This document shows positions 12,980 to 42,642 of a stretch of DNA of 64,000 nucleotides, piece after piece. Numbering within the stretch: position 1 is the stretch's first letter; each line of letters starts with the position of its first letter. The translations under genes and the position numbers were made by a program. The DNA comes from a virus (lineage: Duplodnaviria; Caudoviricetes): positions 160,001-224,000 of IMG/VR virus record IMGVR_UViG_3300001528_000425, one strand, 5' to 3'. The notes beneath the pieces were generated by a model. It was given only the letters and a program-made list of their open reading frames with translations, did no database searches and had not been told where the DNA came from.

Positions 12980-13000
12980 CACTTCTTATACACAAAGGAT

Positions 13001-13036
13001 CAGTTAGGGTAGGCGGATATCCGCCTACCCTAACTG
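13001..13036. terminator. 36-bp perfect palindrome between convergent genes
   Basis: CAGTTAGGGTAGGCGGAT|ATCCGCCTACCCTAACTG. Confidence 0.8.
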
Positions 13037-13049
13037 TATCTTATCGTTG

Positions 13050-15503
13050 TTATTTGAGATCTTCCGGATCAGGATCTTCTGTCATGTTGTACATGGTAAG
13101 AGACACCAAGTCATCGAAAGCAAGTAGAAGCTTGCCACTCGGTGACAGATAGTTATTCAAAGTCTTGAGATAACCCAAGGCTTCTTCATTGGCTTCCTTA
13201 CTTAAGATAGGAACCCAGTTGACAGTGTCATAGACGACTACACCTTCGTTAACAACAAAGACTTTCGTGGATTCCACAAGGAAGTCGTAGACTCTCTGCG
13301 GACCGAGAGTAGTGATGTTCTTCGGATAACTCCAGATGATATCCTTATTGTTCAATCGCTGCCACAGGGGAGTTTCTTTCCCGATATAGTCAGCGTATTG
13401 CATCAGTTCATCCCTCTGGATAAATCCTAAAGTCTTGACTCCCGTATAGGTTCTCAGATAGTTTTCTTCCTCTACGGTGAGAGGAATAACATCATCTTCC
13501 CGATCGTGTACAATGGGAGAGCTCCAATTGTCCGAATCTCCGAATAACGGTTTCCGTTTGAACACCGGAATCCTTGTGGTTGCGTTCGTATCCTTAGGAG
13601 CAATCCGTCGAAGACCTCCAGTATTCTGATCGAATACCGCCAAAGATTCATTGGTAGAAACTCCGATCTCACGATTTGCTACCGTACAAGACACAGCTTC
13701 GCAATCATCTTCGATTGTCACGCCAGAAATAGGTTCCCAGGAACCTTGGTTGGGACCGGATTGATAACTCATGATTTCGCAACCAGGAGCTACATCGAAG
13801 ACTCTCGCTCCATTTCTGTCGAGTTTGAACGGACCGGTGACCGGAAACTCTTGCATCTGGATCTCACAGTAGTTCCATCCATCTTTGGTGAGGAACGTCT
13901 TATCCTTCAGATTCTTGAGGATCGAATCTTTGTCGAGTTGACTTGCCGAATAATCGGCCGTCTGCAACTGAGTATACCAAAGATTGGTATATCTCAAGGT
14001 TACAGTCGTAGTACCAATAAGGCAGTTCCCATCGAAATCTCCCCCTAACGGCGCAAGTCGACTTGGGTGTAGAAGCAATGCATCGGTGAACGAACTGTTC
14101 AAGATCGGATACTCCGGCATCGTAACTGGTTCAGTTGATCCATTGATCAGTTGAACAACTCTGGAAGGTACCGTGGAGATCAGGTGGATCTTCGATACAT
14201 AGATACTGCCGGCATCCGTTACCGGATATCGAGTTACTGTTCCAGTCTTACCGATCGAAGACATCCAAGTTGCGATATACAAGATCTCGCAATAGGTGAT
14301 CGGTCGGAGTCTGGAAGGATCATACAGCAGGTTCATCTTCTCCAACTGTTGTTTCAGGGAGTTGACATCACGTACAAGGATGATCTGTTGATCCAAGTCA
14401 TAGATCATGAACATGTAGTAATGTTTCTTATTCTCTGTCTCAACTGTGAGAGGACGGAACCTGAAATCAGCATCCTGAAACAAATCGATCATCTTGACAA
14501 TACCTTCACTGGAGAGTAATCGGTCTTTCTCGGATTCAGTGATCGGCTGATATTCCAGCTGAAGGGTTTGCGGATTGATCAAACTCACTTGATCAGAACT
14601 GGCACTCAAGACAGTACTGAAGAAGAACTGTTTCAGGTTGTAAATGACCAGAGGTTGTAAGGCTTTGGCTGCTTGAAACAGAGGAACTTTGGTCTCATCG
14701 ACTTTATGGTACTGCGGATCTTTGGGATCTTTAGCAGCCATAATGGAAGATGCGATCACGTTACGAGTTCCAAGAGCAAGTGCACGTGCACCGTACTTCG
14801 ATTCCAGGAACCCTTTCTTCCCGGTCATCATACTGAGGATGTGAAGATAGATTTCATTCACTTTCCTCTGGATCGCGTAATGCACACTGTCGTAGATCGG
14901 ACGTTGCCAGGCCGAAGGCGGCATAGCCTTACAATTGTTCATCAACGACATGTAAAGGTTGTTGACAACATCTTTCTCTTGTTTCCCATCGGTGATCCGA
15001 ATGTCTCGGATACCAGCAGGGAGAACCAGGAATTTGTCGATCAGCAGCCGATCTGGGAATTGCAGGATCAGATCGATCTTGTCTTCCCGTTTAAGAGAGG
15101 CGTTCTTTCGCCAATTGATTTCTGGGAAGTGAGTGAGGAAGAAAGTGAATCCAGTGTCAGCTTCTGGATCATCTTCCGAAGCATGGTCGAAGTCACCGAG
15201 TTCCTTGTTCCAGGTAGCATATGACTTACCAGACATAATGTCAACATAGAAAGATTTCAGTGCTTTCAGGTTCTGGAAAATAAGCGGATGAAAGACTTTA
15301 CAGTTCAGGTTGATCCAGCCGAAGCGAATCAATCGAGCGTTGGTTCCGATCTGTCCGAAGATCTCCTCAGAGAATAAACCCTGAGGATGGAACATGTTAC
15401 TGGAAGGCTCACGGATCAGCGGAGAAGTGACCTCAAGCATGTTGTACTTGGCGATCTCTTTCTCCACATCCATGAGCGAAAGATTAAATGGATCTCTTGC
15501 CAT
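13050..15503 (-). CDS. virion RNA polymerase beta' subunit (phiKZ gp180-like), intein-containing
   Basis: GLFSEEIFG, VLPAGIRD, GKKGFL, GTRNVI, VTRYPV, LGGDFDG; start MARDPF with GGAG RBS. Confidence 0.9.
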   Translation of the reverse strand: MARDPFNLSLMDVEKEIAKYNMLEVTSPLIREPSSNMFHPQGLFSEEIFGQIGTNARLIRFGWINLNCKVFHPLIFQNLKALKSFYVDIMSGKSYATWNKELGDFDHASEDDPEADTGFTFFLTHFPEINWRKNASLKREDKIDLILQFPDRLLIDKFLVLPAGIRDIRITDGKQEKDVVNNLYMSLMNNCKAMPPSAWQRPIYDSVHYAIQRKVNEIYLHILSMMTGKKGFLESKYGARALALGTRNVIASSIMAAKDPKDPQYHKVDETKVPLFQAAKALQPLVIYNLKQFFFSTVLSASSDQVSLINPQTLQLEYQPITESEKDRLLSSEGIVKMIDLFQDADFRFRPLTVETENKKHYYMFMIYDLDQQIILVRDVNSLKQQLEKMNLLYDPSRLRPITYCEILYIATWMSSIGKTGTVTRYPVTDAGSIYVSKIHLISTVPSRVVQLINGSTEPVTMPEYPILNSSFTDALLLHPSRLAPLGGDFDGNCLIGTTTVTLRYTNLWYTQLQTADYSASQLDKDSILKNLKDKTFLTKDGWNYCEIQMQEFPVTGPFKLDRNGARVFDVAPGCEIMSYQSGPNQGSWEPISGVTIEDDCEAVSCTVANREIGVSTNESLAVFDQNTGGLRRIAPKDTNATTRIPVFKRKPLFGDSDNWSSPIVHDREDDVIPLTVEEENYLRTYTGVKTLGFIQRDELMQYADYIGKETPLWQRLNNKDIIWSYPKNITTLGPQRVYDFLVESTKVFVVNEGVVVYDTVNWVPILSKEANEEALGYLKTLNNYLSPSGKLLLAFDDLVSLTMYNMTEDPDPEDLK
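13227..14024 (-). mobile_element. atypical 266-aa intein (no intact endonuclease seen) in the DFDGD motif
   Basis: Block A CLIGTTTVTL directly after GGDFDGN; blocks F/G RVYDFLVESTKVFVVNEGVVVYD followed by Thr. Confidence 0.85.
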
Positions 15504-15537
15504 AGAGCACTCCAATGTTATTTATTTAAGCAGTTTG

Positions 15538-37880: not shown

Positions 37881-39869
37881 TTAGAACCCGAAGTAGCGAT
37901 CGTTCATTCCTTCACGCATGTCGACCAAAGTTGCCTTTGGATCGGAGAACAAGCCGTCCATCCGTTCGAAACTCAACTTAGTAGAGAGCGCTGCTTCATT
38001 GATCACCGAAGCCATACCCGCGAAGGATACAGACTGATGAGCATCTTCGATCACAGGAATACTGTAGTCGATCGAGCTCTTGATCATAAAAGCTCTAAGC
38101 AACATCTCTACATAGAATATTTCGATATCCGTCTTGTTGTACAGGATCTGCGTAAAATCCTTCAACAGTAACGGAATGGAGTGATAGTCGGCGATCTGCG
38201 TCGACAAGAAGTTTTCGATCCTTGTCACGAACGAGACCATGTCGTCGTTCATCACCGTGTACTTCATGAACGGTTTGTGGAGGTCGAACTCTGCCAACGG
38301 TACAGTGACCGTATCGGAAGTGATCTCCAACTGCTTCCAGTACTTCTTCATGTGCATCAGCGCATACGAAGAGAGATACGGAATAGCCGCTCCATCTTCC
38401 ATCGGGACTCGTTCCACGAATTTACCATCCATGAGGATATCGAAGAACCGAATCTTGGTGAAAGACTCCGTGACAGGGAGATTCTTCTGAGTCAAGTCGG
38501 TAAGCGTACCGATCGCATCCAGAGGAATCCTGATCTGCATACGGGATAGTTTGTCTGCAAGAGCCACGTTCCAGATGATACCGTCGTTATGTTTCAGCAG
38601 ATACTTGAGAGCCGGTACAGGAATATTGTATTCCTTCGACAGCGTGCGAATCAGATGCTTCGCACTCAAGATCAACTGAGTGATGGCGGCAACCACCTTG
38701 GTGGCAGAGAAGACACCGATATGGATGCCCGGTGGGATGAACTTGGATAGATGTCCATACATGAACCCAGCACAATGTTCACATACTCCGTCGGTATGTC
38801 GACATCCGAACGGACTGAACATCTGTACTGGCTGTGCAACATATTTTCGAATGTTCTCTCTGGTAAGGATCACCTTGTTCCCGTCGATGCGGATGATCTT
38901 CCCAAGATAGTTCTTCATAGAACGCTCAGGGATCGTTACATCCATGAGGACATCAGACCCACACCATCCAGGATACACCCTCGGTAACTGTGATCCAACC
39001 AATCGGCATTTTCGTGCGAAGTACTGGGCACGTTCGATAACTTCAGAGTTAAAGAACGCACTCTTCTTCGCACTCAACGCCTCGATAGCGTAATCCTCCA
39101 CACCGTCAAGTCCTGACATAGCAGAAGACTGAATCACGTGCTGCATCATGATGTCAGTGATATCGGAACGACAGCCGTACTGCAAGAACATCTGCGGAAG
39201 CTGGTTGCGCTTCAACAGTTTGGTGCTCATGTACGGACGCATCCAGTTGTTTACCAACGGACCGTCTTTCTCCGCTAACAAGACATGCAGCTGATGATTT
39301 AGCTGATCAATCTTCTTCTCAGCGAATGCGGTTCCAAGCTTACCGTCCACCGTACCTGCTGTGAGATCCTTCAGAGGTTTCTGGGTGAACAACTCAGCGA
39401 TACTGATTGCATCCATAGTACCTTGATAAGGTCTCAGATACCTATGGATGAAGTTCGCTAGATAACATTTACCCAAGAAAACCTGCTGAAGGACTTCCAG
39501 ATAGAACGTATCTTGCTGTTCTCGGAGTTTCAGATCGTTGACATCGTGGATCTTTTCATTTTCTCCGGCATAGTGCTTAAGCACCAATTCTTTGAAAATG
39601 ACACCGAAGCATTTGCCATCGGTTTCATCACTGAACGATGGAATCACGAAGACTCGTTCTTTGGTGATCGGTTCTTTGAAATACGCATAGACCCTCCAGA
39701 ATATGGCATTCATGATGATCTTTCTGACAGGAGCGATATACTCGTACTTGTCATTCAGAACTACCATGCCGTAGCCGTTATCCTTGTGGTCTTTCATCAG
39801 CTGTTCACAGAACTTCGGATCGAGGATCTGTTTCAGCTTGAACGTTTGTGTGACTTTTACATCCGCCAT
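37881..39869 (-). CDS. non-virion RNA polymerase beta' C-terminal subunit (phiKZ gp74-like)
   Basis: E..SAKKS...I...QYFARK bridge-helix-like, WCGS, SPFGC...GVCEHC zinc site, TQLILSAKH; between gp71-73-like and helicase. Confidence 0.85.
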   Translation of the reverse strand: MADVKVTQTFKLKQILDPKFCEQLMKDHKDNGYGMVVLNDKYEYIAPVRKIIMNAIFWRVYAYFKEPITKERVFVIPSFSDETDGKCFGVIFKELVLKHYAGENEKIHDVNDLKLREQQDTFYLEVLQQVFLGKCYLANFIHRYLRPYQGTMDAISIAELFTQKPLKDLTAGTVDGKLGTAFAEKKIDQLNHQLHVLLAEKDGPLVNNWMRPYMSTKLLKRNQLPQMFLQYGCRSDITDIMMQHVIQSSAMSGLDGVEDYAIEALSAKKSAFFNSEVIERAQYFARKCRLVGSQLPRVYPGWCGSDVLMDVTIPERSMKNYLGKIIRIDGNKVILTRENIRKYVAQPVQMFSPFGCRHTDGVCEHCAGFMYGHLSKFIPPGIHIGVFSATKVVAAITQLILSAKHLIRTLSKEYNIPVPALKYLLKHNDGIIWNVALADKLSRMQIRIPLDAIGTLTDLTQKNLPVTESFTKIRFFDILMDGKFVERVPMEDGAAIPYLSSYALMHMKKYWKQLEITSDTVTVPLAEFDLHKPFMKYTVMNDDMVSFVTRIENFLSTQIADYHSIPLLLKDFTQILYNKTDIEIFYVEMLLRAFMIKSSIDYSIPVIEDAHQSVSFAGMASVINEAALSTKLSFERMDGLFSDPKATLVDMREGMNDRYFGF

Positions 39870-40783
39870 TACTTCACCACCACTTCTGCACTGTTCCCTT
39901 CAACTTGACGAACTTTGTCAGCTTCCGGTCTGGTATCATACCCGATCGGAGCCATCATGTGCGTAAAGATGGAGATGTTGTTGCTGGTTTTAATGATGTG
40001 ATCAGTCTCCATGGGATAATGAGTCACTTGCGTAGGATGTGGGTCGGTGAGAGCAGTTCTTTCCATCAACTTAACTGCTGATGGAGAGTTGCCGTTCACG
40101 CCCATCAATCTCACGATCGTGTAAGCTCCCATGGACATCGTCGACATACAGATCTCATCTTCACCCAGTCTCTGACAGGTCTGTCCGACTGGAGATTGAG
40201 ATTTGATGTATTTGCTTGTCGGTTTCATCGGAGTCTCGAACTGATTCCCATAACTGATCTCCACACAATGCAGCATGGAGGTCGGGATCTTCCCGAGTAA
40301 CATGAGATGTTTGTCCCCGATGATAGTCTCAGACAGAGTCCTGACTGTTGTCATGGTTCCATCCTCTTCCCGGACCGTATACGTTAAGGGAGATTTCTTC
40401 AATCCATACTTGTCCTTCATGTACAAGATCCACTCTGGTGTGATGTTCTCCATGAACCCGATCGCAAGCATGATCCCGTCGCGTCGAACCGTTTCCACGA
40501 ACTCTTCCTTACGGTTGATGGTCGTTTTCTCGTATTCTTCACGAAGTACGGGTCGAACATCTTCAATGTATCCCATGATGTATTCATAGGCTTTGTTGAT
40601 GTCCTTCATCTCGCGTACCGTCTTCTGGACACATCGACTGAGAGCATTCAGGTCTTGTTCATAGAACTGACCAGGATTCATACGGTTGATCACAGATGCT
40701 GTAGTGATACAGAAATCCGCGATAGTCCCATCGTCCGTGCGAGGCATGTATTTCTTCTCACGGATATCTGATACGACACCTTT
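39869..40783 (-). CDS. non-virion RNA polymerase beta C-terminal subunit (gp71-73-like), exon 2
   Basis: KGVVS...MP, SVINRMNPGQFYEQ, RLGEDE. Confidence 0.88.
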   Translation of the reverse strand, partial: KGVVSDIREKKYMPRTDDGTIADFCITTASVINRMNPGQFYEQDLNALSRCVQKTVREMKDINKAYEYIMGYIEDVRPVLREEYEKTTINRKEEFVETVRRDGIMLAIGFMENITPEWILYMKDKYGLKKSPLTYTVREEDGTMTTVRTLSETIIGDKHLMLLGKIPTSMLHCVEISYGNQFETPMKPTSKYIKSQSPVGQTCQRLGEDEICMSTMSMGAYTIVRLMGVNGNSPSAVKLMERTALTDPHPTQVTHYPMETDHIIKTSNNISIFTHMMAPIGYDTRPEADKVRQVEGNSAEVVVK

Positions 40784-42642
40784 CGTTATGTTCAAGAGAA
40801 CGCGCTACTGTCCTCCCCGCGGCATGACCCGCTCCGCTGCAAGCTTTCCTTGCAGACCAGACTATATCTCCACCTTCACCATTACGTGGTCAGGTGCACT
40901 TCTATTTCCTCGCCGCTTGGCAAGTACAGGGTGGATCAGTCCCTTAGTCGTTGAACTCACCTCATGTCGATATACAGGATATATCGATTTAGAGGGCAGC
41001 TGCGGATTACCCATTACAGCGATCGCGTCTAGAAAATCCCATCTAGTCGATCATCTCGATTTCTTTTACCATACCCAGGTTAATTACTCCTGGCCCCACA
41101 GTAATCACGTTTCCGGCTGTGGTTGGTGTATCGAGCTTTAGTGGCTTCCCGTCAATTAAGAAGTGAATAGTTAAGCATTTCTGCTTAACCAGCCATCAAA
41201 TCTTTGAGATAGTAAATGGATCTGAAGGTTTACTGTATCGTAACGCTCGTTTGATAAATTTCCTATCAACACCCAGCGCTTTCGCAGCTTCCCTCAGCGA
41301 ATGAAACGTGCGTTCTTCTCCAGTTGCTTTATCAACAACCTTCATCTGAACGTTCTTGAACTTGTTTTGTAAAACAGTGGTTGGCCATGCATGAGATGAC
41401 TTGAACCTAACCCGGAACCGCCCGATCATCTTCTTTCCACCAGTCTTCGCTGCTAAGATCAAACTACAGCGAGAGATGCCAACATAAGCTGCAGCTTCTC
41501 TCTGGTTGTGAAACGACCGAACATCTCCGGTGTCAGTATCTAGAACTTGTATCACCTTAGGAACACACTGATCCGTATAGGTAGCAGTATATCCAGGATA
41601 ACGCGCTTCGAACTCTTCGATCGTCTCCCGTACCGACTTGCAGATATTCCACAAACCGAAATACTTGACGAACGTTCGAACCCCGTTGAACACAAGTTCC
41701 TTACCATCTGGATCAACGACTGTGATGATGTACCTAGATGGTTCCACGTTCACAGTCGGTCGATCATAGACCCAAGGTCTAGTGTCACCTTCCACCCGTA
41801 CTTCCCACTCTTCGTTGTACAATCGATTCCCTCTCCAGCTAGCCAATGTAGCAGCTTCACGAGAACCTAACCCAAGATATGCTCTTGCTTGTGAGATACT
41901 GGGAAATTCTTTGATCTCTCCAGTTTTCGCACTTCTCAAGAAACACTTCGTGGTTGGACGAAGGTTGTGGTTGATCGCATGGAGGTTGTTACCTCTGATC
42001 GTTGTCCATTCCAGATTACTTGCATGATTGTTAAACTTATTACCATCGAGATGGTTCACGATAGTGTAGAAGCCTAACCTTGGGTTATGTACCCAAGCCA
42101 TGGCAACGAGGATGTGTATCGCTTTACCAATTCGTTTCTGGATGATCGTGTCCATGACGAATACTTGACGGTATTGCCCACGCAAACCTACACTGAGATG
42201 TGCTCCAGTCTTCACATCGATCACGTCTCCATCTATGGAAACCGCAACCGAAGGATACTCTGGTACGATCCTGTACGTTTCGTCATACATGATCGGTGTC
42301 CTGAATTCCACAACATAAGGGAACTCCGGTCTCCGACTGTCCATCCTGCTGTGGAAGAAGACGTCATCCGGAACAACCGGTACGTATTCTCCCAACCCTA
42401 ATCTGGAGATTAGGAACAACCATCGCCTGGATCGTTGTTGTGTTTTACAATACATTTCAATTGAGACAAGATCTCCTGCCGTTGGCAGATTCACTTCTCT
42501 CTTGTTTTCATCAACAATCTTCAAACGGTTATTGATGAAAAGCTTTTCATTCGTTCCTGGTATCACGTAGTACATAGATTCCTCCGTTTTCAGATTCTAT
42601 ATAATAGTGTACCATCTTCCTTTTTACTTACCTCAAAACGAT
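40784..42642 (-). mobile_element. group I intron in nvRNAP beta gene
   Basis: P AATTGACGGGAA, Q AATCCGCAGC, R TTCAACGACTA, S GAGATATAGTC on -; terminal G before AAA GGT; splicing restores KFTGRDGA|KGVV. Confidence 0.9.
41196..42575 (-). CDS. intron-encoded HNH homing endonuclease
   Basis: IHILVAMAWV...VNHLDGNKFNNHASNLEWTT..NNLHA; multiple NUMOD1-like repeats (FPSISQARAYLG, FHSLREAAKALGV); GGAGG RBS. Confidence 0.92.
   Translation of the reverse strand: MYYVIPGTNEKLFINNRLKIVDENKREVNLPTAGDLVSIEMYCKTQQRSRRWLFLISRLGLGEYVPVVPDDVFFHSRMDSRRPEFPYVVEFRTPIMYDETYRIVPEYPSVAVSIDGDVIDVKTGAHLSVGLRGQYRQVFVMDTIIQKRIGKAIHILVAMAWVHNPRLGFYTIVNHLDGNKFNNHASNLEWTTIRGNNLHAINHNLRPTTKCFLRSAKTGEIKEFPSISQARAYLGLGSREAATLASWRGNRLYNEEWEVRVEGDTRPWVYDRPTVNVEPSRYIITVVDPDGKELVFNGVRTFVKYFGLWNICKSVRETIEEFEARYPGYTATYTDQCVPKVIQVLDTDTGDVRSFHNQREAAAYVGISRCSLILAAKTGGKKMIGRFRVRFKSSHAWPTTVLQNKFKNVQMKVVDKATGEERTFHSLREAAKALGVDRKFIKRALRYSKPSDPFTISKI

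Follow-up and report, generated by a model that had tools for sequence, protein, structure and literature searches.

An intein clade in the catalytic motif of phage RNA polymerases is coupled to asparagine in place of a conserved catalytic aspartate

The gene described here encodes the N-terminal part of the beta' subunit of a phage virion RNA polymerase (vRNAP) and is interrupted by an intein in its catalytic motif. It lies in a stretch of 64,000 nucleotides, referred to below as the window, which corresponds to positions 160,001 to 224,000 of IMG/VR virus record IMGVR_UViG_3300001528_000425 (Caudoviricetes). The source genome is 235,559 bp long in IMG/VR, has direct terminal repeats and is estimated to be 100% complete. 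The gene, which is similar to phiKZ gp180, is found at positions 13050..15515 of the window; this gene and all of its parts are on the minus strand. The open reading frame (ORF) contains 821 codons from a TTG or 817 from the ATG at 15503, which is the likely start, and its stop codon is at 13050-13052.

Residues 8-502 match the PHROG 2986 family 'RNA polymerase beta subunit' (phrog_2986, E=2.5e-137) over profile positions 6-493 of 539, all before the insert. The part of the protein after the insert also aligns with gp180 homologues, giving a full-length match to the gp180/phrog_2986 family. A tblastn search with the vRNAP protein matched 313 phage records, every one of them at less than 60% identity; these are phiKZ-like jumbo phages, in which the homologue is annotated as the virion RNA polymerase (RNAP) beta' subunit. 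Identity to gp180 homologues is about 33%, examples being 201phi2-1 gp275 ('similar to phiKZ gp180') and RAY gp163. A megablast search with the gene and a tblastn search with the intein gave no match in 50,697 phage records, and no cultured phage among them has a related intein. A first-pass annotation, made from the sequence alone, had raised the possibility of an intact copy elsewhere; no second gp180-like gene is found at E<=10 in the complete genome, and the gene in the window is the sole copy.

The N-extein (14025..15503) ends in GGDFDG-N and aligns with intein-less homologues up to their D[FY]DGD. It is followed by a mini-intein of 266 amino acids (13227..14024), which runs from Cys1 to Tyr-Asp, and by a C-extein of 58 amino acids (13053..13226; T-V-N-W-V-P-I-L-S-K-E ...), which aligns with the D-T-x-S-W-I... 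found right after the motif in intein-less homologues. The translation at the junctions, with a slash at each splice site, is GGDFDG-N497/C498-LIGTTTV ... VVVY-D763/T764-VNW. In comparison with six intein-less phage homologues, the 266 residues are inserted directly after D-F-D-G-x, whereas the homologues run through as D[FY]DGD-[T/M]. The residue before the insert, Asn(-1), is encoded by AAC (14025..14027) and stands in place of the third Mg-binding Asp of the homologues. As encoded, the gene therefore has D-F-D-G-N in place of the Metal A triad D-x-D-G-D. Cys1 is encoded by TGC (14022-14024), the terminal Asp by GAC (13227-13229) and the C-extein nucleophile Thr(+1), conserved among relatives, by ACT (13224..13226). 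These codons, the length of the insert, the penultimate Tyr and a block B without His are all as the first-pass annotation described them.

An AlphaFold (AF2) model of the insert, for which the input was an alignment of 19 relatives, has the HINT fold with a mean predicted local distance difference test score (pLDDT) of 87.2 and a predicted template modelling score of 0.84. In a Foldseek search of the PDB, 38 matches have E<=1e-3, and those at the top are inteins without exception (best E=5.8e-8). They include the Aes123 PolB1, TFIIB, VMA, DnaB, RadA and GyrA inteins, with bacterial intein-like and Hedgehog domains lower in the list. Profile searches are less informative. The Pfam Intein_splicing family (PF14890) gives a sub-threshold match of 15-16 bits against a cut-off of 35.8, confined to the last 60 residues of the insert, and NCBIfam gives only faint matches to the insert, none of them useful.

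The splicing blocks can be assigned by comparison with relatives at the same site, which fall into two groups: those with Asn at position -1, as in the window, and those with Asp. Block A (14001..14024) is C-L-I-G-T-T-T-V and contains the Cys1 nucleophile, which is invariant among the Asn(-1) inteins. The block B equivalent (13644..13658) is S-T-N-E-S, opposite S-x-[DE]-H-S in the alignment with the Asp(-1) inteins. Every member of the Asn(-1) clade has Asn at B:9; in the window a Glu replaces the canonical His at B:10 and a Ser replaces Thr. Because the aligned Asp(-1) inteins have S-x-x-H-S here, His B:10 is truly absent from the intein in the window. Blocks F and G (13227..13292; V-Y-D-F ... 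T-K-V-F ... G-V-V-V-Y-D) coincide with the region of the weak Pfam match. Position F:4 is Asp, a Lys stands at the place of the canonical His, and the last two residues are Tyr762 and Asp763. The penultimate residue (G:6) is Y, W or F across the clade and not the usual His. The Asn(-1) clade thus has no canonical His at any of the three usual positions (B:10, F:13 and G:6).

Between these blocks the model has a disordered linker (13506..13541; pLDDT <50 at model residues 169-180), which marks the scar of a homing endonuclease deletion. Relatives have 200-300 added residues at this point, with LAGLIDADG domains (PF14528/PF05204). The copy in the window is therefore a mini-intein that has lost its endonuclease.

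The residues at the junctions, Cys498 at position 1, Thr764 at +1 and a C-terminal Asp763, are those of a class 1 intein. The insertion is in frame at a conserved site for which both intein-less alleles and endonuclease-bearing relatives exist. Judged from its modelled fold and its sequence, the insert is a genuine class-1-type mini-intein, and the claim that an intein lies in the catalytic loop stands. Class 3 inteins (with the WCT residues and a block-F Cys) do not fit, since position 1 is Cys and F:4 is Asp (V-Y-D-F). A group I intron does not fit either. Rfam gives no match within 13000-14100, and the insert is an open frame whose product has the fold of an intein. Moreover, the sole intron boundaries that would restore GGG-GAC are AAC...TAT, not U/...G/. 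The intein would have to be excised to give a working virion RNA polymerase, and its excision is predicted.

Relatives were collected in an exhaustive HMMER search of 1.84 billion representative proteins, together with three word-indexed searches and a scan of IMG/VR. All 122 intein-less homologues have D-x-D-G-D. Six further rows that seemed to be exceptions are false motif matches or ORFs that are out of frame right after D-H-D-G. Asn(-1) inteins are present in 27 protein clusters and seven distinct IMG/VR loci (L007, L008, L010, L011, L012, L014 and L017). They have D-x-D-G-N/C at the first junction, S-x-N-[E/P/A/D]-[S/T] in block B, Lys or Arg at the F-block His position and a terminus of [Y/W/F]-D followed by Thr(+1). 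Asp(-1) inteins are present in 48 protein clusters and five IMG/VR loci. These have D-x-D-G-D/[S/C/T] at the first junction, mostly S-x-[D/E]-H-[S/T] in block B and a terminus of [Y/W]-D/T (Q-D/S in one).

The first-pass annotation had considered errors at two codons improbable, and the relatives bear this out: the same Asn(-1) and Cys1 recur throughout the Asn(-1) group. Some loci have the Asn codon AAC and others AAT, so the Asn is not a sequencing error. In the 29 Asn(-1) rows that were tabulated, Asn(-1), Cys1, Asn B:9, the terminal Asp and Thr(+1) are all invariant, and among the aligned sequences identity to the splicing domain of the window falls to about 32-46%. The residue before +1 is Asp, never the usual Asn, in 82/82 tabulated inteins, and the +1 residue is Thr in 81/82 of the intein-bearing alleles and Ser in the other. 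Among intein-less rows Thr follows the motif in just 57/128 (the 128 include the six false motif matches).

The annotation had further proposed that Asn(-1) and the terminal Asp form a linked, reciprocal swap. This part does not hold. All of the Asp(-1) inteins end in Asp too, so that this last residue characterises the group at large and does not make up for Asn(-1). The apparent swap is, as far as the alignments tell, the coincidence of two separate traits.

The inteins are found in two host architectures, a split gp180-like gene, as in the window, and a very long gene in which beta and beta' are fused and which contains the Rpb2_6, Rpb1_1 and Rpb1_2 domains. The fused ORFs of L010-L021, on IMG/VR contigs of 18-178 kb, exceed 2000 amino acids in one frame, and both types of intein are found in their NADFDG[N/D]. 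Mini-inteins without an endonuclease occur in the window (266 amino acids), in P0018 (259), in P0012 and L008 (196) and in L010 (290). They are on separate branches of the intein tree, and all of them keep the splicing blocks and the frame. This suggests that the homing endonuclease has been lost repeatedly, and repeated loss with the splicing blocks kept in frame reads as a signature of selection for excision. In one record (IMGVR_UViG_3300045988_163688, 361,040 bp) the gene with the 196-residue mini-intein is present twice, in opposite orientations about 240 kb apart (L008 and L009); this pair may be an assembly concatemer and not a true duplication.

A tree of the host gene was made from the N-exteins without the N/D residue. 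In this tree the Asn(-1) intein alleles are interleaved with intein-less alleles. P0004, which has the intein and Asn, is the sister of P0013, which has no intein and Asp, with a support of 100 in the Shimodaira-Hasegawa-like approximate likelihood ratio test (SH-aLRT); their N-exteins are 78% identical and their C-exteins 85%. Further pairs of this kind are P0011 with P0019 and P0018 with P0024. The well-supported branches force at least four intein gains or losses, and through all of these Asn occurs with the intein and Asp without it, with zero exceptions. Finer sampling around P0013 added eight intein-less alleles, all with Asp, and five intein alleles, all with Asn. The co-variation that had been suggested as a check is thus a perfect match between Asn and the presence of the intein. 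Intein-less relatives that naturally carry DFDGNT, which the first-pass annotation had named as evidence that would tell against it, number 0/122.

When 16 Asn(-1) hosts are compared with 18 close intein-less relatives, position -1 is the sole extein column that separates the two groups (overlap 0; the next best column has 0.24). Since no other column does so, there is no compensating change in the beta' subunit.

A second tree was made from 82 splicing domains. All 29 Asn(-1) inteins fall into a single clade (SH-aLRT 99), which spans the split and the fused hosts. The Asp(-1) inteins of the fused hosts branch beside this clade, and the 48 from split hosts form a separate clade (SH-aLRT 100). 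The single clade indicates that Asn(-1) arose once. It has since been kept through deep divergence, despite Asp being one transition away. The two trees together suggest that Asn(-1) moved with the intein between lineages of the polymerase, which is what co-conversion of the adjacent codon during homing would bring about. The Asn(-1) clade appears from these comparisons to be an old intein clade of the DFDGD/T site in phage multisubunit RNA polymerases.

The Metal A triad is invariant, and mutating it abolishes activity in bacteria, archaea and eukaryotes (PMC2605557). This and the Asp found in 122/122 intein-less polymerases, where one base change would give Asn, indicate that Asp is probably needed in the mature enzyme. 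Canonical splicing of the Asp(-1) inteins would give a normal DFDGD-T. In the Asn(-1) clade it would give DFDGN-T, as had been claimed.

We favour, with moderate confidence, a reading in which splicing is canonical, Asn(-1) is obligate and the carboxylate is regained by deamidation during or after splicing. By homology Cys is position 1, Asp is G:7 and Thr is +1, and canonical chemistry would therefore join residue -1 to Thr. Cys1 would form a thioester at Asn(-1), the N-extein would be handed to Thr(+1), the terminal Asp would cyclise to release the intein, and an O-to-N shift would close the chain. Asn(-1) would act as an uncharged stand-in for Asp that is needed by the N-junction chemistry of this clade and is carried along with the intein through co-conversion. 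It would be converted to Asp or isoAsp as splicing proceeds or shortly afterwards, making it a masked catalytic residue.

The argument for this reading has two parts. Asn is never found without the intein, Asp is never found in the Asn(-1) clade and nothing else in the host has changed, which together suggest that the N-junction chemistry requires Asn. His B:10, which normally catalyses the reaction at that junction, is missing from the clade. Work by Amitai et al. from 2009 on the effects of the -1 residue is said to have found that Asp at -1 promotes premature N-terminal cleavage. The second part is that every intein-less polymerase has Asp, so the Asn is presumably converted to a carboxylate. 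One possible route is attack by the side chain of Asn on the activated alpha-(thio)ester of the same residue, which gives an isoimide or anhydride and loses ammonia before transfer to Thr; another is deamidation after ligation, perhaps helped by bound Mg. We put forward tentatively the first of these, in which the Asn alpha-(thio)ester cyclises via the side chain, ammonia is lost and DFDGD-T is made from a DFDGN precursor. Recoding of AAC by A-to-I editing was rejected as a route: the codon is not in the TACG loop context of TadA, and AAT, like AAC an ordinary codon for Asn, occurs in the same role.

Several points weigh against this preferred reading. That splicing occurs, that it needs Asn and that deamidation restores Asp are steps that we infer from sequence comparison, and the last of them is purely so. 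Spontaneous deamidation of Asn-Thr is slow and yields mostly isoAsp, and we know of no intein that alters an extein residue. The single origin of Asn(-1) means that the 29 Asn(-1) rows are not independent on the intein side. Cys1 is found beside Asp(-1) in 12/53 rows of the related Asp(-1) groups; the chemistry can thus in principle tolerate an Asp at the thioester, and the rationale for masking is weaker for that. About nine Asp(-1) members also lack the block-B His, the loss of which is thus not peculiar to the Asn(-1) inteins.

The strongest rival is that the Asn is simply retained. Splicing would be canonical, the polymerase would work as DFDGN-T with the Asn carbonyl as a weaker Mg ligand, and the cost would be imposed by a homing intein. 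This has the simplest chemistry, with no added step. Asn side chains ligate Mg in other enzymes, and homing elements are able to spread despite a cost. The clade is also old and widespread, so its product works whatever it is. However, Asn occupies this position in none of the intein-less homologues even though it is one base away, and no compensating change is found elsewhere in the subunit. The Metal A aspartates moreover never vary among the multisubunit RNAPs of cells and viruses, which become inactive when these residues are mutated (PMC2605557). We consider retention unlikely, though a serious contender.

A second rival is cleavage without ligation, in which Asn(-1) cyclises in the manner of an asparagine lyase. 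The N-terminal fragment would end in a succinimide, and the 58-residue C-extein would become a separate chain. Hydrolysis of the succinimide to isoAsn (the Asp alpha-amide), or to Asn with a free carboxylate, would bring back a carboxylate with no loss of ammonia. Cyclisation of Asn is the standard reaction of inteins and asparagine lyases, and iso-Asn is known from succinimide hydrolysis (PMC4031507; PMC3207474). The polymerases of phiKZ-type phages are also naturally split over several genes, but in no homologue is the C-extein a gene of its own. The clade never departs from Cys1 and Thr(+1), and the related Asp(-1) groups have only C, S or T at position 1, which points to acyl transfer and ligation, and this rival is improbable.

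The first-pass annotation had itself offered another outcome, that the terminal Asp is retained to give DFDG+DT. For this the boundaries would be shifted so that N-C...Y is excised and a host Asp-Thr follows. At the DNA level the insert would then be AAC...TAT between GGG and GAC, with all host codons intact. Asp does precede +1 in every tabulated intein, and with such boundaries the product would be correct in both groups. The proposal nevertheless has no chemical basis: no chemistry is known that cuts between Gly and Asn or in which Asp serves as +1 nucleophile. Homology and fold place Cys at position 1, Asp at G:7 and Thr at +1. C, S or T at position 1 and Thr or Ser after the Asp fit the canonical register only, and we regard shifted boundaries as highly improbable.

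An artefact or a dead gene, whether through sequencing errors in two of the codons or through decay of the intein in a polymerase gene that has lost its function, could account for the three missing His residues, but it is effectively refuted by the comparative data, with identical residues and synonymous codons in 27 protein clusters and seven distinct loci, intact frames through exteins and inteins, a single copy in a complete genome and a high-confidence fold.

The DNA of the catalytic motif is a hot spot for further mobile elements besides the intein. The closest relative is L007 (IMGVR_UViG_3300045988_175426), with an intein about 70% identical over the aligned parts. A group-I-like intron of about 400 nucleotides (L007:2596-3001) splits its GGD/FDGN, with boundaries U/...G/. 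The corresponding Rfam Intron_gpI match (2583-2910; 36.3 bits, E=1.2e-7) is below the gathering score. This intron is four codons upstream of the intein, so that L007 has an intron and an intein almost adjacent in the catalytic motif; the gene in the window is without the intron. Four metagenomic gp180 homologues (P0063, P0067, P0087 and P0156) have ORFs that end or diverge directly after D-[FH]-D-G, which suggests introns at the same Gly/Asp codon boundary as the intein DNA.

The same phage has a non-virion RNAP beta' paralogue outside the window, in which N-A-D-F-D-G is on a small exon (L024:1514-2403, which is 228513-229402 of the genome, minus strand). A group I intron (Rfam, 61.9 bits) is found just before this exon, and right after D-F-D-G comes non-coding sequence that matches Intron_gpI weakly (25.8 bits). 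A regular expression search of the genome for other intact DxDGD motifs found none encoded, and Pfam PF00623 fails to detect these divergent polymerases. In phiKZ itself, gp55 (L023:2924-5206) has no D-x-D-x-D motif and is directly followed by the HNH endonuclease gp56; the annotated gp55 may stop at an intron near the catalytic motif. Elsewhere in the window a group I intron (40837-41223, minus strand; 52.4 bits, above the Rfam gathering score) lies beside a 459-residue ORF (P0231; 41196-42575, minus strand), which by eye resembles an HNH-type homing endonuclease. Together they interrupt a gene, the downstream part of which is at 39869-40795.

Inteins by definition leave the host protein unchanged. 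In the present case every member of an intein clade goes along with the alteration of a catalytic residue that RNA polymerases otherwise conserve absolutely. Should the Asn become Asp, protein splicing would for the first time be seen to rewrite an extein residue, an outcome new in kind. Such an Asn would amount to a natural 'caged' residue in the active site, which could interest those who engineer inteins or seek conditional activation of enzymes, and the virion polymerase could stay inert until maturation. Precise loss of the intein would then be lethal, a form of addiction through which a selfish element makes itself irremovable. If the Asn is instead retained, the universal Metal A triad would be less inviolable than believed. 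There would be novelty in both outcomes.

Splicing is known for inteins that end in Asp and lack the penultimate His (PMC4031507). The inteins described here resemble those with C-terminal Asp or Gln, for example in ribonucleotide reductases (PMC4031507), in their HINT fold, in the class 1 nucleophiles at 1 and +1, in a terminal Asn replaced by a residue that is still able to cyclise and in the absence of the penultimate His. They differ in that the terminal Asp is invariant in the 82 tabulated inteins and not a sporadic variant, that the F-block His is replaced (by Lys in the Asn(-1) clade) and that extein residue -1 is altered relative to intein-less alleles. Tko CDC21-1 is the one functional intein reported without the block-B His (PMC4031507). 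As in that case, His B:10 is lacking and the host gene is maintained, which implies another way to activate the N-terminal junction. In contrast to Tko CDC21-1, the host and the site are different, Asn B:9 and Asn(-1) are invariant and no compensating Lys is identified.

The Asp(-1) inteins of the DFDGD/T site (P0101-P0199 and L016-L021, one of which is labelled 'PHIKZ180' by the Joint Genome Institute) are homologous to the Asn(-1) inteins and share their insertion point, the LAGLIDADG endonuclease, the [Y/W]D terminus, Thr(+1) (Ser in one) and the Asp at F:4. They differ in keeping the catalytic Asp at -1, in having mostly Ser1 and mostly the block-B His, and in the normal DFDGD-T product expected of them.

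Full-text literature searches found no description of an intein inside NADFDGD/DFDGD, of an intein coupled to an altered catalytic extein residue, or of phiKZ or jumbo-phage RNAP inteins of this kind. Known RNA polymerase inteins are found in archaeal rPol A' and A'' and in eukaryotic and viral RPA2/RPB2/RPC2 (PMC1635734). Like these, the inteins at the DFDGD/T site are lodged in the most conserved, active-site-proximal parts of the subunits. Unlike them, as far as that paper goes, they lie in the Metal A triad and, in the Asn(-1) clade, have a changed catalytic residue at -1; none of the inteins in that paper is reported to do either. What is new is an intein clade with an obligate Asn for Asp at -1 and without the canonical His at three positions, and since all three are missing the clade is a test case for splicing catalysis by the HINT fold.

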